From NCBI GenBank assembly GCA_013151045.1, contig JAADIY010000038.1:311-64310 (forward strand): a stretch of DNA of 64,000 nt, in the 5' to 3' direction. This DNA is from Gammaproteobacteria bacterium. GTDB lineage: Bacteria > Pseudomonadota > Gammaproteobacteria > GCA-2400775. Below are positions 678 through 64,000 of the stretch, one piece after another. The notes below the pieces were generated by a model, which was not told where the DNA came from, ran no database searches, and saw nothing but the letters and a program-made list of their open reading frames with translations. A program made the translations under genes and the position numbers. Every line of letters starts with the position of its first letter. The stretch's first letter is position 1.

Positions 678-754
678 TGGTGGCTATGGGTGGACTTGAA
701 CCACCGACCCCAGCATTATGAATGCTGTGCTCTAACCAACTGAGCTACATAGCC
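678..754 (-). tRNA. tRNA-Met (anticodon CAT), 77 nt with encoded CCA
   Basis: Reverse complement ggctatgtagctcagttggttagagcacagcattcataatgctggggtcggtggttcaagtccacccatagccacca folds as cloverleaf; anticodon loop ttCATaa; close to E. coli elongator tRNA-Met. Confidence 0.85.
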
Positions 755-10822: not shown

Positions 10823-12088
10823 TTGACAGCATTAATCGCCATCGGAATTAACCACAAAACTGCGCCGCTTGAAGTTCGTGAGCGCGTTGCGTTTGCACCT
10901 GAGCGTATGGTTGATGCCTTACATGAAATTATTGGCAAAACTCCCGCTAGTGAAGCCAGCATACTGTCCACTTGTAATCGCACCGAATTGTTATGCTCAG
11001 CCGAACCTAGCGATAGCGAACATATTGTCAGTTGGTTTCGTGATTACCATGGCCTGACCCAAGAAGAAGTCGAACCCTATCTCTACGTCTTTCCCGCACA
11101 CAATGCAGTGCGGCACTTAATGCGCGTGGCAAGCGGATTAGACTCAATGGTATTAGGCGAACCGCAAATACTGGGGCAAGTAAAAGATGCCTACAGTAGC
11201 GCTAAAGAAGCCGGCACAGCGGGGCGTCTGCTTAACGGTGTTTATCAGCATGTCTTTTCTGTTGCTAAACAAGTACGTACTGATACGGCTATTGGCTCTA
11301 GCCCAGTATCGGTTGCCTTTGCCGCTGTCAGCCTCGCTAAACAATTGTTTTCTAACTTTGAAAAACATACCGCACTACTTATCGGTGCGGGCGAAACCAT
11401 AGAACTCACCGCTAAGCATCTTAGTGAAGCCGGTATGGGCAATTTAATTATTGCCAACCGCACGTTAGAACGCGCGCAAAAACTAACCCATTCATTAGGC
11501 GGCAAAGCCATTACGCTTGCCGAGATGCCGGATCATTTACAAAACGCCGATATCGTTATTTCTTCTACCGCGAGCCAACTACCTATTCTTGGTAAAGGCG
11601 CCGTTGAACGTGCTTTAAAGCAGCGCAAACATAAACCCATATTAATGATTGATATCGCCGTACCTCGCGATATCGAACCCGAAGTTAATCAGCTCGATGA
11701 CATTTATCTTTACAGTGTTGATGACTTGCAAGAGATCATCAACGAAGGCTTACGCTCACGCCAACAAGCCGCCGAACAAGCCGAAGAAATTATTAATGTA
11801 CAAGTGCTTCACTTTAATGGTTGGTTGCAATCACTTGATGCTGGCTTAACGATTGGCACTTACCGCCAAAACGCCGAACAACTGCGTGATGATGAATTGC
11901 AAAAAGCTTTGCAACTGATAGAACGTGGCGTTAACGCCGACGAAGTCATTAAACGTTTTGCTTACAACCTAACTAATAAATTGATTCATCACCCCAGCTC
12001 GCAAATGAAAAAAGCCAGCTATGAGGGACGTAACAATGTTATCGATGTTGCGCGCGAATTACTTGGCATTAAAGACCTCGACAACTAA
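10823..12088 (+). CDS. hemA: glutamyl-tRNA reductase
   Basis: Six-frame ORF starts 10739 but HemA homology begins at TTG 10823 (MTALIAIGINHKTAPLEVRERV matches canonical HemA N-terminus); NADP Rossmann motif GAGETIE. Confidence 0.88.
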   Translation: MTALIAIGINHKTAPLEVRERVAFAPERMVDALHEIIGKTPASEASILSTCNRTELLCSAEPSDSEHIVSWFRDYHGLTQEEVEPYLYVFPAHNAVRHLMRVASGLDSMVLGEPQILGQVKDAYSSAKEAGTAGRLLNGVYQHVFSVAKQVRTDTAIGSSPVSVAFAAVSLAKQLFSNFEKHTALLIGAGETIELTAKHLSEAGMGNLIIANRTLERAQKLTHSLGGKAITLAEMPDHLQNADIVISSTASQLPILGKGAVERALKQRKHKPILMIDIAVPRDIEPEVNQLDDIYLYSVDDLQEIINEGLRSRQQAAEQAEEIINVQVLHFNGWLQSLDAGLTIGTYRQNAEQLRDDELQKALQLIERGVNADEVIKRFAYNLTNKLIHHPSSQMKKASYEGRNNVIDVARELLGIKDLDN

Positions 12089-12142
12089 GCACCAACACCT
12101 AAACATATTGTTCACCACAGACCTCACACTCGGAAATTTACA

Positions 12143-13231
12143 GTGAAACCCACCATTATTGCCAAGCTCGAAAACATCGGCGAACGCCTAGAAGAACTCA
12201 GCGCATTACTCGCTGATCCTGGCGTTATGAGTGATCAAAATCGTTTCCGCAGCCTATCGCAAGAATATTCTAAGCTCGAGCCCGTGGTTCAGTGTTTCAA
12301 TAACTATAAACAAACACTCAACGATATTGATGGCGCTAAAGAACTGTTGAAAGACAGCGATCTTGACGTACGCGAAATGGCTAAAGAAGAATTCAACGAT
12401 AGCGAAACACGGAAAGAAGAATTAGAACAAGAACTACAGGTTTTATTGCTGCCTACCGACCCTCACGATGACAGCAATATCTTTTTAGAAGTCCGCGCCG
12501 GTACTGGCGGCGACGAAGCCGCTATTTTTGCCGGCGATCTATATCGTATGTATTCCCGCTATGCTGAAAACAAAGGTTGGCAAATTGAACTCATCAATAG
12601 TAACGCAGGTGAACATGGCGGCTTTAAAGAAATCATTGTGCGCTTAATTGGCCAAGGTGCTTATTCACGCTTGAAATTTGAGTCTGGCGCGCATCGCGTA
12701 CAACGTGTACCGGAAACCGAATCACAAGGCCGCATTCATACCTCGGCTTGCACCGTAGCCGTGATGCCCGAAGCTGATGAGATTGCAGAAATTGAAATAA
12801 ATCCATCAGACCTGAAAGTTGATACCTTTCGTGCCTCAGGCGCTGGTGGCCAGCACGTTAACAAAACCGACTCAGCAGTACGACTCACGCATTTACCTAC
12901 TGGTGTCGTGGTCGAATGCCAAGATGAGCGCTCGCAACATAAAAACCGCGCACGCGCGATGTCCGTATTAAAAGCTAGACTCCTCTCCGCTGAAGAAGAA
13001 AAGAAAGCGCAAGCCGAATCTGACACACGCCGCCAACTGGTCGGCAGTGGCGACCGTTCTGGTCGCATACGCACCTATAATTTTCCACAAGGCCGCGTTA
13101 CCGATCATCGCATCAATCTAACTTTGTATAAGCTCGAAGACATGATGCAAGGCAATGCCGATATGGTGATCGATGAACTCATCAAAGAACACCAGGCCGA
13201 CCAACTCGCCGCCATGTCTGACGACAGCTAA
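12143..13231 (+). CDS. prfA: peptide chain release factor 1
   Basis: 362 aa; GGQ motif ([16 protein letters not shown]); hemA-prfA-prmC synteny; GTG start. Confidence 0.93.
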
Positions 13232-13235
13232 TACT

Positions 13236-14175
13236 ATGGCAACACTTGCCAACGCCTTAGCAAATGCCACGCAACGTTTAGAGCACATATCAGATAGCGC
13301 ACGACTTGATGCCGAATTACTCGCCGGCCATTCCTTAGGCATGTCACGCGCACAACTCTTTACTCGCGATAGGGACATTATCAGCGCTGAATCCCTAGCT
13401 GCTTACGAGCCCTTAATACAACGTCGTGAACAAGGTGAACCTGTTGCCTATATTATCGGTAAACGTGAATTCTGGTCATTGGAACTCACCGTCAATGAGC
13501 ACACGCTCATTCCACGCCCTGAAACAGAATTACTCGTAGAATTAGCACTGAAATTTACCGATAAGAAGCAATTTTTTCACATTGCAGACCTTGGTACAGG
13601 TAGCGGTGCTATAGCACTTGCCATTGCTAAAGAACGTCACAACAGCGCTATCGACGCCTGCGACATCTCAACCCAAGCCTTGGCTACTGCAAGACTAAAT
13701 GCCCAACAGCACAATATCAATAATATTGAATTCATACAGAGCGATTGGTTTCAAAACCTGGCTCAAAAAAAATACGATTTAATTATTAGTAACCCCTTAT
13801 GTCGCGCCTGACGATAAACATCTACAACAAGGTGATGTCCGCTTTGAGCCAAAAACAGCGTTAAGCGCAGAGAATAATGGTTACGCCGATTTATTTAACA
13901 TTGCTGACCAAGCAAGAAATTATCTAACAAACAATGCTTATTTATTATTTGAGCACGGCTATGATCAACAGACTAAGCTAATCGAAGAGTTAAAAAACCT
14001 TGGCTACGTTGATGTCAAAGGACATAATGATTACGCACAACAAGCACGCGCCGTTAGCGCACAATGGAGAATGATAAATGATAAAAACGATCACACTGCC
14101 TCGCACTATGGTGAATGCCTTATTACACCAGGCGCAGCTTGCTGGCAAAAAGACAGCGCTAGGTTTAATTACCGA
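13236..14175 (+). pseudogene. prmC: release factor glutamine N5-methyltransferase PrmC/HemK, disrupted by frameshift in NPPY motif
   Basis: Frame 1 (13236-13811) ends ...LIISNPLCRA*; +1 frame continues with PYVAPDDKHLQQGDVRFEP... ; the catalytic NPPY codons read aaccccttat (13791-13800) i.e. two C missing from a C-run. Could be genuine pseudogene or sequencing error. Confidence 0.6.
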
Positions 14176-49273: not shown

Positions 49274-51103
49274 ATGGATGCCCAACAGCAGCAATCCCAG
49301 CTTAAGATATTGATTGCAAAAGGAAAGGAACAAGGTTACCTGACCTATCGCGAAGTTAACGATCATCTCCCCGACACTATTGTCGACCCAGAACAGATCG
49401 AAGACATCGTCAACATGATCAATGACATGGGTATCGAGGTGCACGAGATTGCACCTGACGCCGATAGCCTCATTATGAAAGACGCTGTTGATGAAGACAG
49501 CGCCGACGAAGCCGCCGCCGCGCTTGCTATCGTAGGTAGCGAGTTTGGTCGTACAACTGACCCAGTACGCATGTATATGCGCGAAATGGGAACCGTTGAA
49601 TTGCTAACACGTGAAGGCGAAATTCGTATCGCCAAACGTATTGAAGCCGGCTTGTCACAGATGATGTCGGCACTAGCGACGTTTCCTGCGACTATCGAGA
49701 CCATTCTAGGTGACTACGCGCTTTATCAAAATGAAGAGAAGCGCTTGTCAGATATCATTGTCGGCTTTTTGAGCGACGCAGATCTCGACACAACGGCTAT
49801 TCCTAAACCTGCGGCAGCACGTACCGCCGAAGAAAAGGAAGAAGACGAAGTAGAAAAAGAAGCTGGCCCTGACCCAGAAATGGTTAAAGACTATTTCTCA
49901 AAACTCGCTAAGCTCTTTGATAAGGTGCAAAAATCACGCGCTAAAAATGGTAAAGACCATAAAACCACCGTTAACGCTGTCAATGATCTCGACGATTGTT
50001 TTAAACGTTTTAAATTCATCCCAAAATTTTCAGAACGCTTGATTGTTGCACTGCGCGAAATTGTTGACGTCATTCGCAAACATGAACGCAATATTATGCA
50101 TCTGTGTATCAACGAAGCACGCATGCCACGCAAAGCCTTTATTACCAGCTTCCCTGATAATGAAACCGATCTTGAATGGTTAGATCGCGAAATTGCTTCA
50201 GGTGCCAAATATTCTGAGGTATTGAAAGAACACAAAGACGTTATTGCTGGTGAACAAGCACACCTCGCCGAACTAGAGAAAAAATGGAATTTCAGCATTA
50301 ACGAAATTAAAGAAATCAATCGTAAAATGTCGATTGGTGAAGCTAAGGCGCGTCGCGCCAAAAAAGAAATGATCGAAGCAAACTTGCGTTTGGTTATTTC
50401 TATTGCAAAAAAATACACCAACCGCGGCCTACAATTCCTCGATCTCATCCAAGAAGGCAATGTTGGTTTAATGAAGGCGGTTGATAAATTCGAATACCGT
50501 CGTGGTTATAAATTTTCAACCTATGCCACATGGTGGATTCGCCAAGCCATTACACGCTCAATTGCTGACCAAGCGCGAACGATTCGTATCCCAGTACATA
50601 TGATTGAAACCATTAATAAGCTCAATCGTATTTCACGCCAAATGCTACAAGAAATGGGCCGCGAAGCAACACCAGAAGAATTGGCTGAACGCATGGAAAT
50701 GCCAGAAGACAAAGTCCGTAAGGTATTAAAAATCGCCAAAGAGCCCATCTCGATGGAAACCCCAATCGGTGATGATGAAGACTCACACCTTGGCGATTTC
50801 ATCGAAGACTCTAACGTCATGTCACCGCCCGAATCAGCCACCTTTGAAGGCTTACGCGAGCAAACACAAAACGTACTAGAAAGCCTTACCGCACGTGAAG
50901 CTAAAGTTTTACGCATGCGTTTTGGTATCGGCATGAACACCGACCACACGCTAGAAGAAGTAGGCAAACAGTTTGATGTAACACGTGAACGTATACGTCA
51001 AATCGAAGCCAAAGCACTACGTAAATTGCGCCATCCAACACGTTCAGAACGTTTACGTAGCTTCCTCGACAGTGATGGCAACCCCACAGGCAACGGCACT
51101 TAA
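49274..51103 (+). CDS. rpoD: RNA polymerase sigma factor RpoD (sigma70)
   Basis: 609 aa with regions 1.1, acidic NCR, 2 ([37 protein letters not shown]), 3, 4. Confidence 0.97.
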
Positions 51104-51143
51104 AGAGTCTTTGTCGCTATAACACCATAAGCCTCCCGGTTTC

Positions 51144-51220
<77 letters not shown>

Positions 51221-51597
51221 ATTTCACAAGCCTTATATACAAAAACTTACAAGGGATTTACCAGTGATTTATTGGTGTCCTTTTAAGCCCGCATATCTCC
51301 CAACTCTAGACACTCATACTATTACTGACACCACTCTTACCAGAGTACTTAACGGCCCAACATTGTCAGCGATAAGAGTAATGGTAAGAGGTGGAACAGA
51401 TGGGCTCAAAATGAATACTGTTTGTACAGAGCATCGCACCGATAACCGTATAGCTGATAATGAACGCCAAGAAAACCACTACACAGACCACACCATCTAT
51501 AAAAATACTTTTCACACAAAGCAATTCCAGATGTTCTTTATACTCCACCATTTCGCTTGCAATAGGGATCAGTCACTAACTAACAATACATACTAAA

Positions 51598-51958
51598 ATG
51601 AAAAAAATGGCAAAACGTAACATCCAGTTAGAAAGAACTAAAAATAACTGCTTATCAACAAAAACATACCGATGCTCATAATATAAGCGGTATTGATTTA
51701 TTCTCAGGCGCTGGCAGGATGTCATTAGACGAAAAACTTGCAGGAATTGATATTCATCTCGTCGTTGAAGCTAACAAACATGCCGCCGCAACATCACTCC
51801 ATACGCTTTACACAAATCCACCCAAAGGATCGGCAATACACCACGTCACCGCTTATCTAGCCGAAAATACCGCACCGATAATATTAGTTACTCAATTTAT
51901 TATGCTATTTGATGGTTTGGGCTCCCGCACATTAATGCGCCCAATTAAATTAAACTAA
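51598..51958 (+). pseudogene. DNA (cytosine-5) methyltransferase N-terminal fragment (frameshifted, truncated)
   Basis: Frame from 51632 gives …ISGIDLFSGAGRMSLDEKLAGIDIHLVVEANKHAAATSLHTLYTN (C5-MTase motif I FxGxG and motif II E.NK.A..T); ATG at 51598/51607 is in a different frame (MAKRNIQLERTKNN…*), implying a frameshift ~51660-51680; no PCQ motif downstream. Confidence 0.45.
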
Positions 51959-52021
51959 ACTATGTAAAAATTAGCCGATAACATAAGTTATGTTAAATAT
52001 ACATTACTGAGGAGTATAGAG

Positions 52022-52384
52022 ATGAGCGATGCACAGCAGCTAACCAAAGGAATCGCCTCGCATGGCATGTGGAAACAGCGTCTAATTGATGCAATCAAAA
52101 GTGGAAAAAGTGACTGGAAACCTGCAATTGTATGTAAAGACGATCAATGTGAATTTGGTAAGTGGCTATATTCATGCTCAGCACAGGATAAAGCTGGCGC
52201 TCACTATAGAAACGTCAGAGAATTACATACTGATTTTCATAAAAATGCTGCAAACGTATTAGAGCTGGCATTAGAAAATAAACAAGCTGAAGCTGAAAGT
52301 GCCATCCAATATGGCAGCAAATATGCCAGCACTTCTTCAGAATTGACTAAAGCTATGATGAATTGGAAGAAGGAATTATCTTAA
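52022..52384 (+). CDS. standalone CZB (chemoreceptor zinc-binding) domain protein
   Basis: 120 aa; HGMWKQRL…CKDDQCEFGKWLY…HYRNVRELHTDFH matches CZB H-x3-W … C-x-F/LGKW … H … H-x2-H signature. Confidence 0.7.
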   Translation: MSDAQQLTKGIASHGMWKQRLIDAIKSGKSDWKPAIVCKDDQCEFGKWLYSCSAQDKAGAHYRNVRELHTDFHKNAANVLELALENKQAEAESAIQYGSKYASTSSELTKAMMNWKKELS

Positions 52385-52902
52385 TGCTAATTGCAGAAGC
52401 GGTTTTAGAAAAAAGTACGATCAACAAGCGCATGCCTGAAATCAGCATAGAACAATGTCTAATACGCCATAAATCGAATGAAGCCCAATCAAAGCCATTT
52501 AGGGCAAACGTGAAAACTTAAAACGGTTATCACTTTGATATCTTCTATAAATGAAAAAGCAAACCGTATTTGGCATTCCTTACACTTGCTGCAGGGTCAC
52601 TTACTTACAACGCAAACTATCAGGCAAGTCTAAGCTACGACAATTCAGGCTTATATTTTGATCCTCCGGCGCACTCAAATTGCGTTATAAATTTCACGAG
52701 TTCAGTGTCGGGGGCACATCAATGATGAGTCATTGACCTTTGTCGACACCAGACGCTTTACACAAATTTACCGAAAGAATGTGCCATACGCAATGTCATC
52801 TGTCTTTTCTACGACTTGCATTTTTCAGCCTTTTCTAATCTTATCTTCTGCGCTTCACACTTTTTCACATAGGCCTCAAGTGACCACCTAGGCACACCTC
52901 CT

Positions 52903-53530
52903 TCATCCCGCAACCCCTAGTGATAAGAGAGCCACCGAAGAGGAGTCCGGCAGCGACCCCATAATATCCCTGGCCCTCTGACTCACACCCCGACACTCCA
53001 AATGTGCATAGCCCTGGGGCATCTGTACATCCATATGGCCTAATACCTTGACCGCTTCATACAAACTCGTACCGTTTTGGATTAAACGACAAGCACAGTT
53101 ATGATGCAAACCATGGATTCCCCCCCTATCCCCGCACGCTCTAATGCCCTTCTGATTCCGTGCATCGCATGGTTTATTGGCCCATCCTCTCCCTCATTGG
53201 TAAACACAGATTCCGATTCCACTGCCTTTTCTTTGAATCGTCGCTTTAGAAGCGTATAGGCACGACTCGTCATATGAATGATGGATTCATTCTTCACCTT
53301 CGATCACCATAGATGAATGACCTATTCTTCTAGACTAATCTAGTGCCAAGGAATTTCAGCAGTTTTCGAGTAACGCGCATCCAATAACAGCACCACAAAA
53401 TCATAATTATCATGCCGAGCACGCTTTTCTTTGTCTGGTCCGTTCTTATAGGCAAGACGATAAGGTAAGGCCTTGTAGGGATTGAGTATTCGTTGAAGTC
53501 TGATTTCAATCGGTCTATCTGCCTCCTCAA
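52903..53530 (-). pseudogene. tyrosine recombinase/integrase, degraded (multiple frameshifts)
   Basis: Three minus-strand ORF fragments (53530-53330, 53297-53082, 53109-52903) carry integrase C-terminal signature pieces (…LIQNGTSLYEAVKVLGH…GYAHLE with the catalytic Tyr), but with HxxR degraded (HHNCAC). Confidence 0.6.
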
Positions 53531-53645
53531 ATTAAGGCTTTTTTATCTTAAAATAACTCCGCCTCGCAAGAGCGATGGTAAGAGCAAAGCTCACTAAGAT
53601 TTTGAAATATAAGGGTTATTCGGAGCCCTCTTCTCACCTGACCAT

Positions 53646-53692
53646 CTCATAATCCCTTGGTCAAAGGTTCGAGCCCTTCTCGGCCCACCAAT
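53646..53692 (+). repeat. direct repeat of tRNA(CAT) 3' end (att-like site, ~47 bp, ~6 mismatches)
   Basis: ctcataatcccttggtcaaaggttcgagcccttctcggcccaccaat vs tRNA 51176-51222 ctcataatcccttggtcgaaggttcaagtccttcacggcccaccaat; integrase remnant adjacent. Confidence 0.7.
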
Positions 53693-53777
53693 CCACCCAC
53701 CGCGGAACTTTCTGCGCCAACATCTTCTCTTAACCCTTAAGGTTTACTATTTTTCAGCCTAAGGAGACAGCATTCTA

Positions 53778-53825
53778 ATGAACCATATTGCTGGACCTGA
53801 TATCTACTGTTATCCTCATGAATGA
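53778..53825 (+). other. 15-codon upstream ORF (MNHIAGPDIYCYPHE) with strong SD, stop overlapping start of downstream GGDEF-EAL gene
   Basis: AAGGAG at 53762-53767, ATG 53778; TGA 53823-53825 overlaps main ATG 53818 (ATGAATGA). Confidence 0.35.
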
Positions 53826-56130
53826 GTCTATTTATGAGGTGACAATGGAGGGTTTAAGTAATTCCACCACACTGCTGCTTGAAGAAATTCAGCAGTTACG
53901 TGCCGAGCTAAGCACTACCCAGCTAGAAGCACAAAAGCGCGCAACCGAACTTGATAAAAGCGAAGAACGCTTGTCTCTAGCCATGCGCTGGGCCAACGAT
54001 GGCTTATGGGATTGGAATATTGAAACTAACGAAGTCTATTACTCTCCTCGCTGGAAAAGCATGTTGGGCTATGAAGAGAATGAGCTTGATAACAATATCA
54101 ATACTTGGGAGAACCTAGTCCACCCTGACGATAAAAACATGGCAATACAAGCCGCTCAGGATTATCTAGCGGGTCGAGCAGACTCATTTGAAATTGAAAT
54201 ACGAATGTCACACAAAGATAATCGCGATATTTTTGTACTGTCCCAAGCATTCATAGTCGGTCGCGAGCCTGATAATAAGCCAGTTCGCCTCGTTGGCACT
54301 CATATCGATATCACTGAGCGCAAAAAAACAGCAGCGTTCAATAACAATAATGCCAAAATTCTAGAGATGATTGCCATAGGGAATCCCGCATCTGATATCT
54401 ATAATGCTATTGCCTTAATGTATGAAGACCGTCACCCAGGCTTACGATGCTCCATGCTCGAGCTGCATGGCAGCAAACTTATGCACGGGGGAGCGCCAAG
54501 CTTACCTAGCGAATATTGTAAAGCCTTGCACGGCCTAGAAAATGGCCCCAGTGTTGGCTCATGTGGAACATCGACTTTCAGCGGGAAACGTGTTCTTGTC
54601 GAAAATATTGAAACAGACCCTAAATGGGGAAACATTAAACACCTAGCATTGCCTCATGGTATGCGGTGTTGCTGGTCCGAGCCGATTAAAAGCTCTTCTG
54701 GAGACGTGCTAGGCGCGTTTGGTATGTACTATAACCACCCTGCGTTACCAAATGAAGACGAATTAAATGACCTTAGTTCTGCGGCACGACTAACAAGTAT
54801 TGTTATGGAGCGAGATCAAGCTCAAAAGCGTATAAGAGCATTAGCTTATAGCGATGAATTGACTAAACTTTCTAGTCGCGCCCACTTTTACCTGCACCTT
54901 GAAGCAGCCATCAAAACCTCTAGTCGATACAAACATCGTTTTGCCCTGCTATATATTGATTTAGATGGCTTCAAGGGTATTAATGATAGTCTTGGCCATG
55001 ATGCTGGTGACTTACTCCTGATAAATATTGCAAAACGTTTGCAAAGCACCTGTCGTGACATTGACTTTATTGCACGCCTCAGTGGCGACGAGTTTTGTAT
55101 CCTCATTAGCGAGCTAAGTGATAATTATACAGCTGCCAATGTGGCGCAACGGTGTCTTAATACTGTATCACAACCTGTCGAACTTTCTACGAGAAAGCAT
55201 ACACCAGCATGCAGTATTGGCATCGCGCACTACCCTGATGACGGCAACGACCTAGCAAGCTTAATCAAGGCAGCAGACACTGCTCTTTACGCAGCAAAAA
55301 AAAATGGCAAGAACCAATACGCTTTCTATAAACCAGAGCTCACCCGTCAAGCCGAACATCGTTTCCTAGTTGAACAATATCTACGAGAAGCAATTGAAAA
55401 TCAGCAACTTTCTCTCGTCTATCAACCACAAATCAATCTTAAAACCGGAAAAATTATCGGCGTCGAGGCATTATCACGCTGGGATCACCCGATATTAGGC
55501 GGAGTTCCACCGGTTGAATTTATTGCCACAGCTGAAAGAATCGGCATGATTAAACCGCTCACTGAATGGGTACTAAGCACCGCTTGCCAACAAGCCGTTG
55601 CCTGGAAAAAAGAAGGCTTTCCTGTACCGCGTATGGCAATCAATATTTCGTCAAGTCATTTTATCGATAAAGAAATTGTGCCACTAATCAAACGAATTAT
55701 TAATGAAACAGGAATAACCCCGACCGAATTAGAATTGGAAGTGACCGAAAGCGTTGTCCAAACTGACCCTAGAAACCTTTCCATTTTTCAAAACTTAAAA
55801 AGTCTTGGTATTCAACTAGCCATTGATGATTTCGGAACCGGCTATTCATCTTTTGCTTCTCTTAAACACCTTAAAGTTGATTGCCTAAAAATAGACAAAT
55901 ATTTTGTTGATGATATGCTTGACGATGAAAAAGCATTACTCCTTATTGGCTCAATGATAGAGATGGGCCATCAGTTGGGTTATAGCATTGTTGCCGAAGG
56001 GGTGGAAACGTCAGAACAGTTTTATACTTTAAAAAATCTAGGTTGCGATACTGCTCAGGGATATTTATTTAGTAAACCCGTCAAAGCTCAGGCTATTGCT
56101 AAATTAATAAAAAATGATTATAACATTTGA
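53818..56130 (+). CDS. PAS-GAF-GGDEF-EAL signalling protein
   Basis: ORF from TTG 53788; first ATG 53818 (MNESIYE). PAS (WDWNIETNEVYYSPRW), GAF-like region, GGDEF (RLSGDEF), EAL (EALSRW, DDFGTGYSS). Confidence 0.88.
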   Translation: MNESIYEVTMEGLSNSTTLLLEEIQQLRAELSTTQLEAQKRATELDKSEERLSLAMRWANDGLWDWNIETNEVYYSPRWKSMLGYEENELDNNINTWENLVHPDDKNMAIQAAQDYLAGRADSFEIEIRMSHKDNRDIFVLSQAFIVGREPDNKPVRLVGTHIDITERKKTAAFNNNNAKILEMIAIGNPASDIYNAIALMYEDRHPGLRCSMLELHGSKLMHGGAPSLPSEYCKALHGLENGPSVGSCGTSTFSGKRVLVENIETDPKWGNIKHLALPHGMRCCWSEPIKSSSGDVLGAFGMYYNHPALPNEDELNDLSSAARLTSIVMERDQAQKRIRALAYSDELTKLSSRAHFYLHLEAAIKTSSRYKHRFALLYIDLDGFKGINDSLGHDAGDLLLINIAKRLQSTCRDIDFIARLSGDEFCILISELSDNYTAANVAQRCLNTVSQPVELSTRKHTPACSIGIAHYPDDGNDLASLIKAADTALYAAKKNGKNQYAFYKPELTRQAEHRFLVEQYLREAIENQQLSLVYQPQINLKTGKIIGVEALSRWDHPILGGVPPVEFIATAERIGMIKPLTEWVLSTACQQAVAWKKEGFPVPRMAINISSSHFIDKEIVPLIKRIINETGITPTELELEVTESVVQTDPRNLSIFQNLKSLGIQLAIDDFGTGYSSFASLKHLKVDCLKIDKYFVDDMLDDEKALLLIGSMIEMGHQLGYSIVAEGVETSEQFYTLKNLGCDTAQGYLFSKPVKAQAIAKLIKNDYNI

Positions 56131-56244
56131 ACAATCTTCAGCCATTAGTCCCTCAGTCACATTGTGAAAAAATTTTTCAATTTCAAAAAATAGCTAACAT
56201 AGAATAATATTTGGCAATCCTCCTCGTTTAATATTATTGATGAT

Positions 56245-56603
56245 TTCAATCGAGGAGGTTTACGTAAGCAAACACAAAATGTACTAGAAAGCCTTACGCA
56301 TGCGCTTTGGTATCGACATGAACACCGACCACACGCCAGAAGAAGTAGGTAAATAATTTGATGTAACACGCGCACGTATACGTCAAACCGAAGTAAAAGC
56401 ACTACGTAACTACGCCATCCAACACGCTCAGAACATTTACGTAGCTTCCTCGACAGTGATGGCAACCCCACAGACAACGGACTTAAAGAGTCTTTGTCGC
56501 TATAACACTATAAGTCTCTCGGTTTCAGGCGTTAACTCAGTTGACTATAGCATCCAACTCATAACCGGAAGACTCCATGGTCAAGTCACGGAGGGCATAC
56601 CAA
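56245..56603 (+). pseudogene. degenerate duplicate of rpoD 3' end plus tRNA(CAT)
   Basis: Aligns to 50845-51212 at roughly 85-90% identity with a ~22-bp deletion and premature stop (taaataatttg vs caaacagtttg); tRNA-like part retains ctcataa anticodon loop but has disrupted stems. Confidence 0.75.
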
Positions 56604-56649
56604 ACTCATCAAATATTCTGGCCTTACTAATTTTTTTCTAGTCTAGAGC

Positions 56650-57297
56650 TTATTCGTTTGATGATGTGCTAAAGCTTATTTTCAATTCATTAATTCGACG
56701 TTTAATTCCCACCGCCAATGCTGAATTTGGATTCGCCGCCAACCATTGCTGCCAAGTCTTTACCGCCTGCGAGTGATTTTTAAGCTCAACATAAACGACA
56801 CCTAAATTAAATAAGGTAGCGCCATCATCAGGTGAAAGCTTAAGGTTTTCTTCTAGCAAGCGGCGAGCTTCATCAACATTGCCTTGTTCAAGCTTGATTG
56901 ATGCCAGATTAGAACGAGCATCGATGTGTTGCGGATTCAACTGCAAAAGACGTTCATAAAGTGGCGCCGCATCGTCGAACCTTCTAATCATCAAGCTTGC
57001 ATTAGCAAGCCCCATTAGCGCCATCTCATCATCTGGATTTTCATTTAAAAGCGTGCGTAAAAACTGGATTTGCTGCACTGGATTAGACGAACCTATATCC
57101 GGTGGATGGGTGGATGGTAACTCCTGCTTTGATCCGGCCGCATCAAGATCAGCCAGCGCTATAATCTTTGGCGCTAATGGTGTTGCAAGAGCCGCTTTAG
57201 AATCATTAGCGCCAAATTGATTGAGTGCAATGATGGTTGACCCTGCGACCAAAACCAGGGTTGGTACTACGAAGCGATAATCACGCAGTAATTTCAT
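56650..57297 (-). CDS. TPR-repeat protein with N-terminal membrane anchor
   Basis: ORF to 57315; GGGAGG SD favours ATG at 57297 (MKLLRDY…); TM segment then 3-4 TPR units; 26 nt after upstream gene. Confidence 0.7.
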   Translation of the reverse strand: MKLLRDYRFVVPTLVLVAGSTIIALNQFGANDSKAALATPLAPKIIALADLDAAGSKQELPSTHPPDIGSSNPVQQIQFLRTLLNENPDDEMALMGLANASLMIRRFDDAAPLYERLLQLNPQHIDARSNLASIKLEQGNVDEARRLLEENLKLSPDDGATLFNLGVVYVELKNHSQAVKTWQQWLAANPNSALAVGIKRRINELKISFSTSSNE

Positions 57298-57323
57298 TGT
57301 TAAACGACCTCCCATAGCAGCAA

Positions 57324-59735
57324 CTACTTTATATCACCTGAATCAGCATGATGAGCGATGCCTTTATTGGTCTCGATAAAGTTCACAATCGAGGCTTCAT
57401 CAAACTCATCAAATGTTTCAAGCTTGGCCCATGCAGTCACAGCAATTTTTGATTCCATTAGCGGATACGGCGCCAAAATTACATACTCAGGATAACGTTT
57501 TAAAATATCCTCAAGTTTGGCAACCGTATCAGGGCAGGCTTTACGACAATTATATTGAATCACCACCCCCCCAACCTTTAAGTTATAGACTTGCAATGCT
57601 AACGGCAACGGCACTTGATAAGCACCCCAATCGGCGATGAAGGGTAAATGTGCCCCTGAAGTTGGCGGGTTGCTACTATAAGGTTCATGCGTTTCAAGAG
57701 GATGGTAAATATACTCACCGCTTGCTTGTGATGCAGTCTTACCCTTCTCGGCACCGTCTTCTTTCTCAGATAATTTTGGTACACGCCGGGTATCCCCCAA
57801 CAAGGCCAAGTCAAATTTCTCGTCAGGAATACCGCTGTTTATCTTAACCTGATCGATCTTTACCTCTTCGGTCCTGCCATTATCGAGCACACGCTCTAAT
57901 CGACCAGGCATGGAATACATTTTGTCTATTTTTTTATAATCGTAAAATTTAGTTTCAATGATACCGCCAAACTGCTTGCTTTCTGTTTGGTGCCCTTCCG
58001 CTTTGTTTACCGGAAATTTTTCTATCAGGTTTGTCGGGTAAGCTGTATTTGCGTCCACCCAAAGTTGCGGCACGGCTTGCCCTGTTTCGTTGGCGCCAAT
58101 AACATAGTAGCGATGTGGTTCATGGCCTTCTGCATGCTGATGATCGTGATCTGTATGAGAGCCGTCTTTTTCTTCTTTTTCCTCAAATTCCATGACTACA
58201 TCCACTGCGATGCCACTTCGAAGATAAGAACTGCCGGGTACATCACCGGCCAAACGCTGTATTGCCTCATCAACCGATAGACTTGATAAGCCATAGAGCG
58301 AAGATAATAAATTTTGTCGCGGTGTCACCCAAAAACGACCGTCCTCAAGTATGGATACACTTGTCCCAGCTTGCGCCAGGCGCACTAGCCCACCTTCTGC
58401 TTCGGTTCTTAACCAGTTTGGAGCTTTGTAATATTGCATTCGCTGAGAAAGCGTCGAGGGATTTTTGGCTGGCTGTGTCTCCACATCCTTTTCTTCACCA
58501 TTCTCTTTTGCACTGACGCCAACTGAATCCACTTTCCAGGTTGCCGTTTCGCGCCATGAAAGGTCAGAATACGGTGCGCTCACACTTTGCATTTGCTTAA
58601 TAATCTTCTTCACTAGTTGCCGCGAACGTCCCTCGCTGTTTAGCAAGTCATCACGGACACTGAGCGGCACCTGTACTAACTCGACATCCATCGGCACATC
58701 ACCCGTCGAAAAGGATCGAAGAGTTTTCAGGGTCTTGCCATCTAATTCAATGAGTTCACGGTTGAGTTGATCCAACACATAAAGCTTATCGCCATCGAAG
58801 CTCCCCTCGACTAGACCACCATTGATCGTAGCAGCGTTAATTTCTGTAATAACCGGCCACGGGCGCACTGAGAAATCTGTCTCATAAAGTACAACATAAC
58901 TTTTTTTGATACCTAAGCCGCGCCAACATAAAACTGCCATTTTAGTCTCATCGGGAGACAGCAATATTGCCTGTGGTGCAGAACAAGTTGGAACTCCACG
59001 ACCATCACCATGCACATTAATCAGGCTAAGCCCGTTGGTCTCGCTATCGGCTGTCAACAAAAAAGGCTCTTTTGCCGACACAATAATACTGGTCGGGCCA
59101 AGCCCCGTACGTTGAGTGGCAGGACTAACTGGTGATGGCGTCGAATTTTTTAAATCATAGGGATAGTTAACAATGTAAGAATAGCGTTCACTTTCAACTT
59201 TAGATTGCGGATCAAAACGCGCCATATAAAACCCCGCGCTATCCTGCCGTTGAACCAGATCGTAGATCTTGTTTATTTCTGTGACCTTAACGCCGAGCCT
59301 ATCACCATTTTTAGGGTCAATTTTATAAAGCCCTGAACGCGGCCAACTAAACGTAACAAACTGCTCTCCATCATTGCTAAATATACCTGGCCCACGATAA
59401 GGAAGCACATGTTTAATTTCATGATCAGTTAGGTCAATTATCGCTGTTGACTCCGAGTACCAATGCTGAGCCAATAGTTGTTTACCATCCGGCGAGGAAA
59501 CCAAACGCCAAGGACCCGCACCCGCATAGATCTTGCGTAGCGTTTTTCCAGATGAAAGATCAACAACCTGAATGTTGTTATTCGCTGCATTAGCAATGTA
59601 AGCTAATGTAGTTTTCTCAATGGGGGAAGAGACAGAAGAATTCGTTACCTCAGCAGCGCTTGCTCCGATACCAACAAAAAGTGTCAACATTGTTAAAAAT
59701 GATATTAGAACTCGCATAAACTTCTTACACCTCAC
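57324..59735 (-). CDS. secreted multidomain protein: YVTN-type beta-propeller + LolA-like middle domain + His-rich linker + C-terminal DUF3105-like domain
   Basis: 803 aa; signal peptide (MRVLISFLTMLTLFVGIGASA); N-terminal repeats typical of YVTN beta-propellers; HTDHDHQHAEGHEPH linker; C-terminus (…SGAHLPF…VYNLKVGGVVIQY…YVILAPYP…IAVTAWAKLE…) matches DUF3105 shape with NLEHG-like motif altered. Confidence 0.75.
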   Translation of the reverse strand: MRCKKFMRVLISFLTMLTLFVGIGASAAEVTNSSVSSPIEKTTLAYIANAANNNIQVVDLSSGKTLRKIYAGAGPWRLVSSPDGKQLLAQHWYSESTAIIDLTDHEIKHVLPYRGPGIFSNDGEQFVTFSWPRSGLYKIDPKNGDRLGVKVTEINKIYDLVQRQDSAGFYMARFDPQSKVESERYSYIVNYPYDLKNSTPSPVSPATQRTGLGPTSIIVSAKEPFLLTADSETNGLSLINVHGDGRGVPTCSAPQAILLSPDETKMAVLCWRGLGIKKSYVVLYETDFSVRPWPVITEINAATINGGLVEGSFDGDKLYVLDQLNRELIELDGKTLKTLRSFSTGDVPMDVELVQVPLSVRDDLLNSEGRSRQLVKKIIKQMQSVSAPYSDLSWRETATWKVDSVGVSAKENGEEKDVETQPAKNPSTLSQRMQYYKAPNWLRTEAEGGLVRLAQAGTSVSILEDGRFWVTPRQNLLSSLYGLSSLSVDEAIQRLAGDVPGSSYLRSGIAVDVVMEFEEKEEKDGSHTDHDHQHAEGHEPHRYYVIGANETGQAVPQLWVDANTAYPTNLIEKFPVNKAEGHQTESKQFGGIIETKFYDYKKIDKMYSMPGRLERVLDNGRTEEVKIDQVKINSGIPDEKFDLALLGDTRRVPKLSEKEDGAEKGKTASQASGEYIYHPLETHEPYSSNPPTSGAHLPFIADWGAYQVPLPLALQVYNLKVGGVVIQYNCRKACPDTVAKLEDILKRYPEYVILAPYPLMESKIAVTAWAKLETFDEFDEASIVNFIETNKGIAHHADSGDIK

Positions 59736-59997
59736 TAAAAACTAATTTGAACTACTGATACTAAACATGAGCATATGACACATATAAATGTAATGTCATG
59801 TACTGAAGGTTTGCCCATGAATGAAATACGTAAAGAATCTTATTTCGCGCAGCTTAAGAAGTGGACAACTCAAGCACTAAGTGCTCTATTAGCTTGCTAC
59901 TTTGTAATAATCGATCATAGCAATGTGTCAGTATTTGGGCGGGCAACTGATAACAACTGCAGATGTACATTAACCTTTCAGTTAAAAATCTATGTCC

Positions 59998-60027
59998 TGA
60001 TCGGTTGCTAATATTAGCAACCGATCA
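59998..60027. repeat. perfect 30-bp palindrome (15-bp arms, no spacer) between cytochrome gene and beta-propeller gene
   Basis: tgatcggttgctaat|attagcaaccgatca; 44 nt downstream of cytochrome stop; possible terminator/attenuator or protein-binding site. Confidence 0.6.
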
Positions 60028-60070
60028 CCGCCCATCTCTTCATAAAACTGACACTGTCCACATACCGAGA

Positions 60071-63000
60071 CTAACGTCGCCGTCCGTGACGGCCACCACT
60101 TCTCGTTGTCGTTGTCGTCGCAACGGTAGTAGTAGCAGGAGCAGGAGCGCTTGTTGACGCAAGTGCAGCAGATTGCCCGGTAGCAAAACCAAGTGGCACT
60201 GAAGTATCACCTCTGCCATTAGTACGGCTAGTGGCAGTCTGGAAGCTCCAGCTAACTGCTGCATTACTACAGTTATTTGAAAAATCACAAATACCTGCCG
60301 CTAATCGTGCTGTATAAGTAGCCCCCGTGCGTAAGAAGATATCATGAGCAAACAAGGCCCATGTACCATCACCGATCTGATCAACAAATGCCGGTACTGG
60401 TAACCCACGCGAATCGACCAGGGTAAACGTTCTATTGTCTACTCCTGTCACTGGCTCGTTAAAAGTCACTTTAGCAACAAAGTTGCTGTAAACACTGCTT
60501 GCGCCATTTACCGGATAAGTTTCTGTAACACTCGGTGCTACATTATCCGCAGCCAAATTAATCACCCAGCTCTTCACCTCCATAGGTACAGGTGGCGCGC
60601 CTTCAACCACTGCAGGCTCAGTAGATGGCGTACGCCCACCATCACATAGTCCCTTCAGAACACAAGGTTCTAGCACTGGCAAAGGAGCGTTTGCCGGATC
60701 AGCGAGATACGCTGCTGACTCTTGGTCCAGGTCAGTGTTAGCCAAATTACCCAGGAACTCCTCAGCAATAATCGCCTCTAGAGACTGGTAATACATCGCC
60801 GCAGTAACAGCAATAGGGCCCACCGCATTAGCTGGAATGATGACCGAATAACGATCACTCAGATCTGCAACTGCGGCAGCCATAGGCAATGGGCTCAAAC
60901 GTGTGTCAATCAGAAACGAATCATCAAACAGATCGCCATCACCATCGACATCCATATACTGTGGAATACCGCGCGGGTTATTTCGATCAATCGCCACACC
61001 GCTAGCATCAATAGGCACGCCATCATCGTTAGTGACTATATTGACCGCCGTTGCATAAGCCAGCGCCAGAGTCGGGCAGCCATCACCCAGCGTAGCAACT
61101 GCTCTCATTATGCGAGCATAAGGATCTGGTGATCCAGCTCTCACACTCCAGTCACACCCTGGGAAGTTAGGGTCGACCATCTCTTCGGTGGTGAAGTAAC
61201 CGACACCGGTAGAAGTGCGATCCCACACTGAGTCGTGAATGTCTAACTCAGCACCTGTGGCCGTATCAAAAGCTCTCACTGCGACCCAGCTAATACGCCC
61301 TTCAGGAAAACCTGTGGGGAAATTATGACCGCTACCATCGTTAGTCACCGTCAATGTCGATATCCCTACAGTGTCACCAGCATTAGCGGTAACCGCTGCT
61401 GACAGATCCAATGACACGGCATTACGTAGACGATCCCAGGCCATCCGCGAATGATGCGTCGGTGTGCCTGTACCCGTCGAGTTGTAATAGGCCCAATGGA
61501 ATTTACTACCTGAGCTAGCAGACGTAAAGCTGGCACTCGATAGCACTGGATAGGGTTGCACCGCACCACTGCTGCCACCTCCGCCATGGCGACGACCACC
61601 ACCGCCAGTAGCAACCGTAGCACCGAGAAGGTTGGTTACATATGCATTGCCACCGACGAAATGATGGGTGTATAAAGCGTCACGCACAGGCCCACGAAAG
61701 CCAACCACCCCTCTAAGCGGTGCAATTGACCTGCCGTTGCTATACAAAGTCTGGGTCGTACCAGGCTGACCAAAATCCTGCTGCATATGACAGGTTTGAC
61801 AATCACGCTTAAAAGCGGGATCAAAGTTTGCCTGCGTTCTGCCAGTTACGGGATCAATACGGTCTGCATAACGACTATTTGACCACTCGCTATAGGTTCG
61901 CTCAATCGGAAAGCCACCTACCCATTGTTCTAATGGGTTAAGAACCGTGACTGGATTAGTCACATCATGACAAGCACCGCAAAACTCGGAGCGTTCAAAT
62001 TTGACATGATAGTAACCTTCATGCCCGCCATGACGACCTCCGCCTCCGCCGCCACGACGGCCACCACCGTGACCACCACCAGCAAAACGATCTTGGTTAG
62101 CTATCGTGGTATCAAAAACGTCGCTGATGTACGGATCAACACCGCCAACAGCGCCATTCCATATTGGTCCAAAACGCGCTGGTCGGTTAATAGCATTGGG
62201 CGACAAACGGAACGTACCACCACCAATACCGTAGCCTAAGTTAGGGCTGTTCGCATCCGGAATGTTACCTACGTTACCTGAATTACCCAAGATACTCGAA
62301 CGTGAACCACTACCCTGAGAAGGTATATATTCCACCCCTGATTGCACATAGGATGAATAAGGTGTGCGCTTGGATTCTGCATTGGTATGACAGACCGCGC
62401 AAAATATACCGCGCTTACCACTTGCAGTATTGCGATAAAGCGACTGCGCCGAGTCTATGACTGTAGCATAGGCTCTGTCAGTGCCATTTGATGAGGTGGG
62501 ATCATAGTTGGGGATGACCGCTGCGTGCTCAAAATTACTGCCATCACCCAGGTCATCTATATTGACGCCGGCAAGTGGCACCGCATCAATATAGTTAGAG
62601 GGCATATGACAACGCGAGCAAAAGTCATCAAAAAGCGAACCGGACCCTGTCGTAGTCGCCGTCGCACCACCTCCGAGATTAAATCTAGATGAAGTGCCGT
62701 CGATAGCAAACGGGTTGAGGTCATTGCAAGCATAGGCCTCGGTACCGTCTATCGCCCGGCCTTGCGCATTAAGGTTCTCAAGCACATCGCCGCAACCGTC
62801 GGTCGCTGTCGCGCGTGCCGTTAACAAAAATACGGCTTGCCAGGCTGGATCGCGCCAGGCATTGGCCTTCATAGAGCCATTCCATTCACTGAAAATACGA
62901 TCATGACAACCTGAGCACTGGCCAGGATTGTTAACATTATTCCAGTCGCTCTCAAAGGGCGGCGCATGGCCTGTGAAGCCACCAAAAAAACCCGCTTCTT

Positions 63001-63139
63001 GCAAATTATAAGGTGCCGGCTCGGCAATACGGTTTGGTAACTCGCCATGGCGAGCATGAGCCTGTGAAACAAAACCGATCAATCCAATTATCGCGCCCGA
63101 CACTGCAAGCGCACGTAGCCAATGTGCTTTAACATCCAT
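60071..63139 (-). CDS. secreted pentaheme c-type cytochrome with G/R/H-rich inserts and C-terminal Ig-like (SbsA/Big_5-type) domain
   Basis: ORF to 63307, but signal peptide and GGAGA SD support ATG 63139 (MDVKAHWLRALAVSGAIIGLIGFVSQAHA). Five CxxCH: CSGCH, CSRCH, CAVCH, CGACH, CQTCH; two CxxCH…SEW.(G/N)S units; GGGHGGGRRGGGGGGRHGGHEG and GGGGRRHGGGGSSG inserts; C-terminal Ig-like domain; poly-Thr + RSGGRHGRRR tail. Confidence 0.8.
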   Translation of the reverse strand: MDVKAHWLRALAVSGAIIGLIGFVSQAHARHGELPNRIAEPAPYNLQEAGFFGGFTGHAPPFESDWNNVNNPGQCSGCHDRIFSEWNGSMKANAWRDPAWQAVFLLTARATATDGCGDVLENLNAQGRAIDGTEAYACNDLNPFAIDGTSSRFNLGGGATATTTGSGSLFDDFCSRCHMPSNYIDAVPLAGVNIDDLGDGSNFEHAAVIPNYDPTSSNGTDRAYATVIDSAQSLYRNTASGKRGIFCAVCHTNAESKRTPYSSYVQSGVEYIPSQGSGSRSSILGNSGNVGNIPDANSPNLGYGIGGGTFRLSPNAINRPARFGPIWNGAVGGVDPYISDVFDTTIANQDRFAGGGHGGGRRGGGGGGRHGGHEGYYHVKFERSEFCGACHDVTNPVTVLNPLEQWVGGFPIERTYSEWSNSRYADRIDPVTGRTQANFDPAFKRDCQTCHMQQDFGQPGTTQTLYSNGRSIAPLRGVVGFRGPVRDALYTHHFVGGNAYVTNLLGATVATGGGGRRHGGGGSSGAVQPYPVLSSASFTSASSGSKFHWAYYNSTGTGTPTHHSRMAWDRLRNAVSLDLSAAVTANAGDTVGISTLTVTNDGSGHNFPTGFPEGRISWVAVRAFDTATGAELDIHDSVWDRTSTGVGYFTTEEMVDPNFPGCDWSVRAGSPDPYARIMRAVATLGDGCPTLALAYATAVNIVTNDDGVPIDASGVAIDRNNPRGIPQYMDVDGDGDLFDDSFLIDTRLSPLPMAAAVADLSDRYSVIIPANAVGPIAVTAAMYYQSLEAIIAEEFLGNLANTDLDQESAAYLADPANAPLPVLEPCVLKGLCDGGRTPSTEPAVVEGAPPVPMEVKSWVINLAADNVAPSVTETYPVNGASSVYSNFVAKVTFNEPVTGVDNRTFTLVDSRGLPVPAFVDQIGDGTWALFAHDIFLRTGATYTARLAAGICDFSNNCSNAAVSWSFQTATSRTNGRGDTSVPLGFATGQSAALASTSAPAPATTTVATTTTTRSGGRHGRRR

Positions 63140-63440
63140 ATTAATTCTCCATTTGGGTTTATTCCACTCAAACCCACTTAACTTTAATTCAGCCTCATTT
63201 CTTAGCCAAATTTTATTTCCGTTGATTAATGTATCAGCTTTCGTTACCAATAAGCAAATCAAGTTTGCAACAACCCTGTCCAAACTCGGGCATAGACCGC
63301 CAGCCAAAAATTACTAGGAGTGCACGACATGAATACATCAGCAACAATACGCCAACTGTTTCAGTTTATCCGAAGCCATTCTGAAAAATGGATTTTGCCA
63401 GCAATAATTCGTCGGCACTGCAACAGTGAATTTTTTCTAA

Positions 63441-64000
63441 CTAACGGTTCACCGAGCTTTTTATCAAAAAATATTTGTTAGTCATCTTAGGAAAATCACC
63501 AATCAAATTACGCAACTTATCAAGATCACTAACATCACCTCGATATGCGATACGATCAAACATTGCAGCCAATGCTAATGTAGATTGAGCCAACTCAGGC
63601 CTCTCCACAGCAACGCGTCTCGCAAAGCTAGATACCGTTTCACCTTGGCTTCGTTTTATTCCTAAATTCTCAGCCTTCCTAATAAATTTATCTATCAAAC
63701 GAATTGCAATAGGCAATGGGCGCTTGCGATTAATAAGATAAAAATAGAGAAACAGAGCCAAACCAAGTGCTAAGCTAGCAATAACAACAATCATCGCAAT
63801 ACGCCATGGCTCAGCACCACCAAATATTTTTTCTAAAACACCTTTTTGTGATTGACGATCATAACTAACCACCCATCGATTCCACACATAACCGACAGCA
63901 TCAACACGTTGTCGTAGCGATTTCATCCAAGGAAACTCACCATACGCGCCGCTGCCAACAAGCTGTAAATCTGACTCACTTAAGGCATCGGCAATTCCAT
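63441..64000 (-). CDS. DUF4129-like domain membrane protein (5' end beyond window)
   Basis: Frame remains open from 63926 to window edge (…GIADALSESDLQLVGSGAYGEFPWMKSLRQ…); TM helix (IAMIVVIASLALGLALFLYFYL) then C-terminal domain with DUF4129-like pattern (…TVSSFARRVAVERPELAQSTLALAAMFDRIAYRG…). Confidence 0.6.
   Translation of the reverse strand, partial: GIADALSESDLQLVGSGAYGEFPWMKSLRQRVDAVGYVWNRWVVSYDRQSQKGVLEKIFGGAEPWRIAMIVVIASLALGLALFLYFYLINRKRPLPIAIRLIDKFIRKAENLGIKRSQGETVSSFARRVAVERPELAQSTLALAAMFDRIAYRGDVSDLDKLRNLIGDFPKMTNKYFLIKSSVNR

Follow-up and report, generated by a model that had tools for sequence, protein, structure and literature searches.

Among the closest described counterparts of the locus considered here are the orphan gene ends found in T6SS/Rhs loci, which were attributed to homology-facilitated illegitimate recombination (HFIR) (PMC5361080). 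In such Rhs, CDI and T6SS effector-immunity systems, the 3' end of a full gene recurs in 5'-truncated form beyond a stretch of cargo, with one homologous and one illegitimate junction (PMC5361080). The same arrangement is found in the window, the 64,000-nucleotide stretch of gammaproteobacterial DNA analysed here, in which a 5'-truncated 3' end of rpoD lies downstream of the full gene beyond a cargo (a CZB gene and a DGC/PDE gene). This cargo is absent downstream of the tRNA in the other clades. Nevertheless, the Rhs/CDI/T6SS 3' ends encode different toxins and their arrays are under selection, whereas the rpoD ends were identical when made, the rpoD and spacer copies as a whole being near-identical at that time, no diversification is seen, and the orphan decays.

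Islands that integrate into tRNA genes form a second family of comparison, and ileX is listed among the island insertion sites of E. coli (PMC7545054). The present locus resembles them in several respects: the site is an ileX-type tRNA beside rpoD, the region contains an integrase remnant and a 47-nt repeat derived from the 3' half of the tRNA, and the foreign 3' part of the pseudo-tRNA resembles a tRNA or att fragment borne by an element. There are also differences. What is repeated at 56253-56614 is the end of the upstream gene, the spacer and the 5' part of the tRNA, which is the opposite of an att duplication, and the preliminary description of this DNA was right to consider a simple att duplication inadequate. 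A repeat made of the tRNA 3' part does exist, but it is the separate 47-mer at 53646-53692. The heterology of the scar begins 5' of the anticodon loop, the DNA 3' of the live tRNA is vertical rather than the start of an island, and the only integrase is a remnant restricted to the window, no intact one being present. Nor do the relatives offer a precise empty site, as the corresponding interval of the scar-free relative L031 holds about 510 nt of unrelated DNA.

The third process to which the locus can be likened is one-ended ectopic gene conversion or templated double-strand-break repair, which gives rise to short dispersed duplications. Eukaryotes provide better documentation of such events than bacteria do. 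The likeness lies in a patch of about 330 nt with a homology end in the tRNA D arm, a microhomology-type end on the other side and an unchanged donor; the difference is that no intermediate state was seen here, the event being deduced from anatomy. Taken against these systems, 56253-56614 is a known kind of object, the pseudogenised remains of a recombination at a hot spot beside a tRNA, with the unusual composition of an upstream gene end and a chimeric pseudo-tRNA. The best explanation is that of a non-functional scar made of two unrelated pieces.

The live copy of the junction belongs to the operon rpsU-yqeY-dnaG-rpoD, whose order is common to the relatives. The intact rpoD (49274-51103, plus strand) is an open reading frame of 609 aa, the RpoD protein being 99% identical to P0128, and the duplicated segment derives from its last 256 nt (50848-51103). 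It is followed by a clade-specific spacer of 40 nt (51104-51143, plus strand); the spacers of L001-L003, L036 and L040 bear no relation to it in either sequence or length. Next comes a live tRNA(CAT) (51144-51220, plus strand) recognised by ARAGORN and by the Rfam tRNA model (74 bits), which folds at -34.2 kcal/mol (z -4.7 vs shuffles). It is the orthologue of E. coli ileX (tRNA-Ile2), because its top E. coli match is an annotated tRNA-Ile in the context dnaG-rpoD-mug-tRNA. Linkage between rpoD and tRNA(CAT) is retained in 11 of 16 related loci, and the anticodon arm GGGGA/CTCATAA/TCCCT is common to most of the rpoD-linked tRNAs of related loci. The tRNA of the sister clade differs from the live one by a single base, in the T loop, in a setting where the flanking genes show 22% nucleotide divergence.

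Directly 3' of the live tRNA, a flank of about 175 nt (51221-51395, plus strand) is kept in that 22% diverged clade, where it is homologous to L036 11939-12115. It includes GGTAAGAGGTGGA and, at 51334-51358, an imperfect inverted copy of the 5' 25 nt of the tRNA (inverted repeat I2). The flank is thus vertical DNA and not island DNA, and no island begins at the tRNA. It may represent a conserved RNA or regulatory element; an Rfam search of 51221-51395 returned no match.

The scar sits 5.4 kb downstream of this live copy. Its larger part, 56253-56552, is a 5'-truncated copy of about 90% identity that comprises the last 256 nt of rpoD, the spacer of 40 nt and some 26 nt from the start of tRNA(CAT). 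When 50700-51299 was compared by BLASTN with the whole window, 50903-51161 matched 56288-56543 (90.0% over 259 nt, E 5e-93) and a second match linked 50848-50893 to 56256-56300 (89%, E 4e-10). MAFFT alignment and repeat finding concurred on the second copy, so that the decayed duplicate announced in the preliminary description does exist. Homology sets in at about 56253, equivalent to rpoD 50845-50848, 256 nt before the stop. The left junction, 56252|56253, joins DNA downstream of the DGC/PDE gene to rpoD at about 50848; an 8-bp inverted repeat, CCTCCTCG...CGAGGAGG (56219-56258, plus strand), can be read from the sequence across it.

Within the copy, all on the plus strand, the rpoD' pseudogene fragment (56253-56486, a copy of 50848-51103) is 90.5% identical to the live gene. 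It has an in-frame TAA at 56354-56356, a 1-nt frameshift deletion and a deletion placed after 56293 between TTAC repeats; the stop and the deletion had both been noticed earlier, the latter measuring 23 nt and not ~22 bp. The spacer copy (56487-56526) is 92.5% identical. The 5' part of the pseudo-tRNA (56527-56552), which corresponds to the acceptor 5' strand and the D arm, is resident-like with 76% identity over tRNA positions 1-26 and carries a G1 deletion, G10A, G19A and U20C. The window and its relatives share two 1-nt deletions, one opposite 51021-51023 and the other in the tRNA G1-G3 run.

From the anticodon stem onwards the picture changes. The right piece of the scar (56553-56614, plus strand) consists of the 3' two-thirds of the pseudo-tRNA, from the anticodon stem to CCA (56553-56602), and of the next 12 nt; it is tRNA-like, with conserved loops and with stems unrelated to the resident tRNA. 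Identity to the live tRNA falls to 55% between the anticodon stem and CCA, with matches confined to the loops: 22 of 32 positions differ in the stems and variable loop vs 1 of 18 in the anticodon loop, T loop and ACCA (Fisher p 1.6e-5). The similarity had been said to cover most of the tRNA, and this holds for the rpoD end, the spacer and the tRNA start only. The broken tRNA stems of the preliminary description are real in so far as the acceptor, D, anticodon and T stems all contain mismatches and ARAGORN and Rfam recognised no tRNA in 56527-56602; the pseudo-tRNA folds at the level of shuffled sequence (-13.5 kcal/mol, z 0.10). What did not stand is their reading as a broken copy, as the 3' two-thirds are a different, foreign tRNA-like sequence. 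This heterology and the 47-nt repeat of the tRNA 3' half were absent from the earlier account and are new here, as is the resident origin of the left piece.

The contrast between the two pieces was seen when, in the window and in a close relative, L023, the live copy was compared with the dead one and the differences common to both dead copies were counted. These shared differences amount to 2/190 in rpoD', 2/40 in the spacer, 3/25 in tRNA 1-26, 23/51 in tRNA 27-77 and 6/12 in the next 12 nt, with a jump from 4/230 upstream to 23/51 in tRNA 27-77 (p 7e-16). Slow drift cannot account for the right piece because the live tRNA has kept all but one base across a divergence of 22% between clades. 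The recombination boundary lies between tRNA positions ~10 and 27, within 56527-56552, and the right piece is the remnant of a foreign tRNA(CAT)-like sequence. Its stems are partly self-complementary (TCCAA/CCGGA and CCATG/CACGG). As some 6-8 stem-breaking mismatches are common to all three orthologues, far in excess of the 1.7% of shared change in rpoD' and spacer, this sequence was a non-functional relic by the time the pieces were joined, unless it had never been a functional tRNA.

A tRNA or att copy borne by a mobile element is the most likely origin of the right piece. Among the rpoD-linked tRNAs of L001-L016 and L036-L040, none has the stem type of the pseudo-tRNA. Exact-pattern scans of viral and metagenome contigs with the foreign tRNA part gave no match, and its BLAST comparison with phages and plasmids returned generic tRNA(Met/Lys) similarity only (E 0.02-0.7). 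A scan of metagenomes with a 22-mer of the spacer also gave no match and was too strict, since none of the relatives found later matches it exactly. The other tRNA(CAT) of the window (678-754) was considered as a source and ruled out, being an ordinary elongator tRNA-Met with different stems. Resemblance to an initiator tRNA, that of E. coli, is only partial.

Beyond the conserved flank, a gene for a chemoreceptor zinc-binding (CZB) domain protein (52022-52384, plus strand; Pfam PF13682, E 1.7e-13) immediately precedes the DGC/PDE gene in every relative of the clade (L023, L028-L035). Between the two genes, the window contains a segment of 1,344 nt (52402-53745) that is absent from L023 and L028-L035. 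On its minus strand is a frameshifted and 5'-truncated tyrosine-integrase remnant (52903-53530) known from conceptual translations, one fragment of which matches Pfam PF00589 (E 4e-4). The segment also holds an att-type repeat of 47 nt (53646-53692, plus strand), which runs from the tRNA anticodon loop to CCAAT and is 91% identical to 51176-51222 (direct repeat D5; BLAST E 6e-13). This 47-mer is nearer to the tRNA 3' half of the sister clade, which has a TTCGAG T loop (93.6%), than to the resident tRNA. A 53-nt, 77%-identical copy of 51796-51848 is found in the same block at 52746-52798. An island spanning 51221-53692, bounded by the 47-nt repeats and with CZB as cargo, was considered and rejected, as the flank is vertical and the block with integrase and 47-mer is a window-only indel of 1.34 kb.

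The diguanylate cyclase/phosphodiesterase (DGC/PDE) gene that precedes the scar (53788-56130, plus strand) encodes a PAS-GAF-GGDEF-EAL protein by Pfam and has a 96% orthologue in L023. Orthologues at 76-78% occupy unrelated housekeeping contexts. PAS-GAF-GGDEF-EAL homologues with 70-78% aa identity were also observed in Nitrosomonas, Porticoccus, Alteromonadaceae and cyanobacteria (Synechococcus, Acaryochloris, Leptothoe). Because such identity is unusually high across phyla, it suggests a horizontal spread of this gene. On the other side, a TPR gene (56650-57315, minus strand; Pfam) converges on the scar and is the first of a TPR-DUF3105-Big_5/cytochrome module. The module (window 57324-63307 for its TPR-DUF3105-Big_5/cytochrome-like part) shows 85-95% protein identity to L019. 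In L018/L019 it is found at another location, beside a 443-aa gene and with no tRNA.

The DNA downstream of the rpoD-linked tRNA varies widely. In L036 the order is rpoD-tRNA-flank-TgpA, and the window has about 12 kb extra, consisting of CZB, DGC/PDE, scar and TPR-DUF3105-Big_5 module, before its homologue of TgpA (transglutaminase) at ~63.4-64.0 kb (~63441-64000). Still different DNA follows the tRNA in other relatives, whereas the contigs of the P0129 clade stop ~0.5 kb after the tRNA and were uninformative. In L038/L039, which have a sister-clade RpoD, three unannotated ORFs of 246, 168 and 146 aa (11941-13629) start 5 nt after the tRNA and replace the L036/L037-type flank. Probably this ORF block represents a further island that uses the same tRNA; within the contigs, it has no distal repeat. 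With five different downstream arrangements among the relatives, an insertion sequence in L028, the replacement of the scar in L031 and the window-only integrase/att fragment, the plasticity proposed in the preliminary description is supported, and the ileX-type tRNA beside rpoD is a recombination and insertion hot spot.

The best reading of the scar is a single event in the ancestor of the clade that placed a patch of resident DNA onto a foreign tRNA-like relic, by crossing over within the 5' part of the tRNA and joining illegitimately in rpoD. One-ended templated repair is proposed as its mechanism, tentatively and with slightly less than an even chance in our estimation. According to this proposal, a foreign tRNA-like relic, already damaged, would have been present at the hot spot before the left piece joined it. 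After a break beside the relic, its tRNA-like end would have invaded the live tRNA 5.4 kb upstream, and copying that ran leftwards across the spacer and on into rpoD would have added about 330 nt. Microhomology would then have served to rejoin the new end at 56252|56253 (= rpoD 50848). The scar has since drifted neutrally and gained lineage-specific deletions, stops and frameshifts; one lineage has acquired an adjacent IS, and another has had the scar replaced completely. Of the two junctions, one is homologous, in the conserved tRNA 5'/D-arm region, and the other illegitimate, in rpoD. The hot-spot context is illustrated by a second tRNA-derived relic in the same region, the 47-mer with the integrase remnant. 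The homology available for strand invasion is short (the D arm, about 20 nt). Among the relatives, no genome with the relic and without the rpoD' patch was found, and the order of events is deduced.

The same end product can come from a larger duplication followed by deletion, and this is the alternative that survives best; we regard it as a serious contender that is nonetheless doubtful. Here the whole of 50848-56252 (rpoD 3' end, tRNA, flank, CZB, DGC/PDE) would have undergone tandem duplication, or else conspecific DNA would have been inserted through HFIR or through Campbell-type integration of a circle, with two tRNA copies as the outcome. An att-borne fragment of a tRNA-targeting element would have recombined with the distal tRNA and replaced its positions ~10/27-76, after which the element and the remainder of the second copy would have been deleted. 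The join of 56252 to 50848 is a novel end-to-start junction, precisely as expected from tandem duplication or from an illegitimate insertion on one side, and the displaced 5'-truncated 3' end fits the orphan pattern of T6SS/Rhs loci (PMC5361080). The region holds debris of an integrase and of att sequence, and redundancy of the distal tRNA would account for the tolerance of a non-functional chimera. It is possible that the island and the DGC/PDE gene were inserted between two older copies. On the other hand, this course of events takes at least three steps (duplication, recombination with an element, deletion of ~5 kb plus the element) vs one for the templated patch. No second copy of the flank, CZB or DGC sequence was found in the window or any relative, and the collinearity of a tandem copy stops inside the tRNA. 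Furthermore, the heterology begins 5' of the anticodon loop, unlike the standard anticodon-loop crossover of integrases. A Campbell or specialised-transduction type of integration with the right tRNA as the resident original was also considered and is disfavoured, since this tRNA type occurs in no relative and has many shared defects.

The preliminary description had entertained import of a diverged rpoD-tRNA junction from a relative by homologous recombination, to which the present identity of only ~90% and the clearly non-resident tRNA part might lend weight. We consider such an import very improbable. At the split between the window and L023, the copy differed from the live rpoD and spacer at only 4 of 230 positions, and because of this closeness the rpoD'-spacer' segment must have been copied from the resident genome, shortly before that split. 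The comparison with rpoD 3' ends of relatives points the same way, as the dead copies are nearer to the live rpoD of this clade than to that of L036, L040 or L001 and group with this clade in distance. In addition, the spacer is clade-specific and cannot be aligned outside the clade, even with the nearest other clades. The polarity of the two shared rpoD differences is ambiguous, the outgroups being in conflict at 50971.

As the copy was near-identical to the live gene at the split, its present 10% divergence mostly reflects neutral decay after copying. In rpoD', the window has 12 private changes and L023 has 15, and the two dead copies differ by 14%, which is close to the 9-13.5% divergence of the two genomes at four-fold sites (dnaG, rpoD, CZB, DGC/PDE). 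Changes in the dead copies are distributed as 7/14/6 over the three codon positions with no bias, and those of the live copies as 0/0/4. Each lineage also has deletions of its own, 23 nt in the window and ~35 nt plus 19 nt in L023. The scar has thus drifted neutrally since it was made.

A further idea is that the segment has a function as a sigma-70 region-4 peptide, a decoy att site or a regulatory RNA. The public gene calls do contain ORFs of 62-77 aa with a Sigma70_r4 Pfam match on the orthologous segment (L030 15521-15754, L033 6300-6488, L034 6184-6372). These calls, which match PF04545, and the retention of the segment in three lineages speak for a function, which we nevertheless hold to be highly unlikely. 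In the window, the sigma-70 region-4 frame is full of stops and has frameshifts; the rate of evolution is neutral and lacks codon bias, third positions included. The L030 ORF starts at a non-ATG codon (first residue Leu) and R-to-H changes affect a conserved 10-residue motif. Promoter and terminator signals are not above background, and the segment was lost outright in L031. The Sigma70_r4 ORF calls on the orthologous scar are likely mis-annotations of pseudogene fragments.

Relatives were located via their DGC/PDE, TPR and RpoD proteins; exact look-ups with the RpoD, TPR and CZB proteins of the window gave no match. The same scar, with the left junction of the window and the sequence upstream of it, was found in L023 (= L029), L028, L030 and L032-L034, and L017 has it in part. 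The order in this set is rpoD-spacer-tRNA-flank-CZB-DGC/PDE-scar. In L017, a Logan contig with a 95% identical TPR, the scar abuts the TPR gene as it does in the window. In the L023/L028 lineage, an insertion lies 12 nt after the pseudo-tRNA; it is an IS30-like element (L028 15864-16967) that has an rve transposase and inverted repeats CCTGAATTCATATAGTAAGTGCAAT, and in L028 it is followed by TPR. A similar inverted-repeat-like sequence, CACATAGCAAGTGCAAC, is found in L040/L041 about 0.3 kb downstream of the tRNA. The scar-bearing assemblies are independent, coming from NCBI, ENA, JGI and Logan data, and the presence of the same scar in independent assemblies of close relatives shows that it is inherited and not an artefact. 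An assembly or chimeric-contig error, to which the tendency of the relatives' short-read contigs to break near the repeat (L017 inside rpoD', L023 in the IS) might point, has a negligible probability, since the two copies are 10% diverged with private indels and the structure was assembled independently from all four sources; the duplication artefact that the preliminary description named as a possible refutation can be set aside.

L031 deserves separate mention. It has the same RpoD protein, CZB, DGC/PDE and TPR, and the equivalent of 56211-56647 is swapped for ~510 nt of unrelated DNA (L031 13210-13728) that had no match in all other retrieved sequences. It is hence not a clean empty site, the scar interval being filled by this DNA. 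The distance between L028 and L031 is 2.36%, vs 3.3-3.45% for either against the window, and 60 informative sites favour ((L028,L031),window) vs 37 and 38 for the other arrangements. Distances and informative sites favouring that tree imply that L031 would have lost the scar, a conclusion with moderate support; the scar-free state of L031 could in principle be ancestral.

The scar does not indicate a new biological system, and its main value is for annotation and for the inference of genome history, the segment being better labelled as a pseudogene or scar than as a Sigma70_r4 ORF. A bolder reading, which we think unlikely, is that the tRNA-like att relics which mobile elements leave behind can still recombine with the live tRNA and capture pieces of adjacent essential genes by one-ended templated repair, and that region-4 mini-ORFs (77 aa in L030) persist in some strains and could be expressed. 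If true, capture by such relics would be a route for dispersed gene-end duplicates at tRNA hot spots. The chimeric pseudo-tRNA is a small and clean example of how broken stems can mean a foreign tRNA fragment and not decay. The left piece offers a yardstick of the neutral rate, as a dated and unconstrained copy of the end of an essential gene that can be compared across strains. Finally, the scar marks the ileX-type tRNA beside rpoD as an insertion hot spot in an uncultured Thiotrichales lineage.
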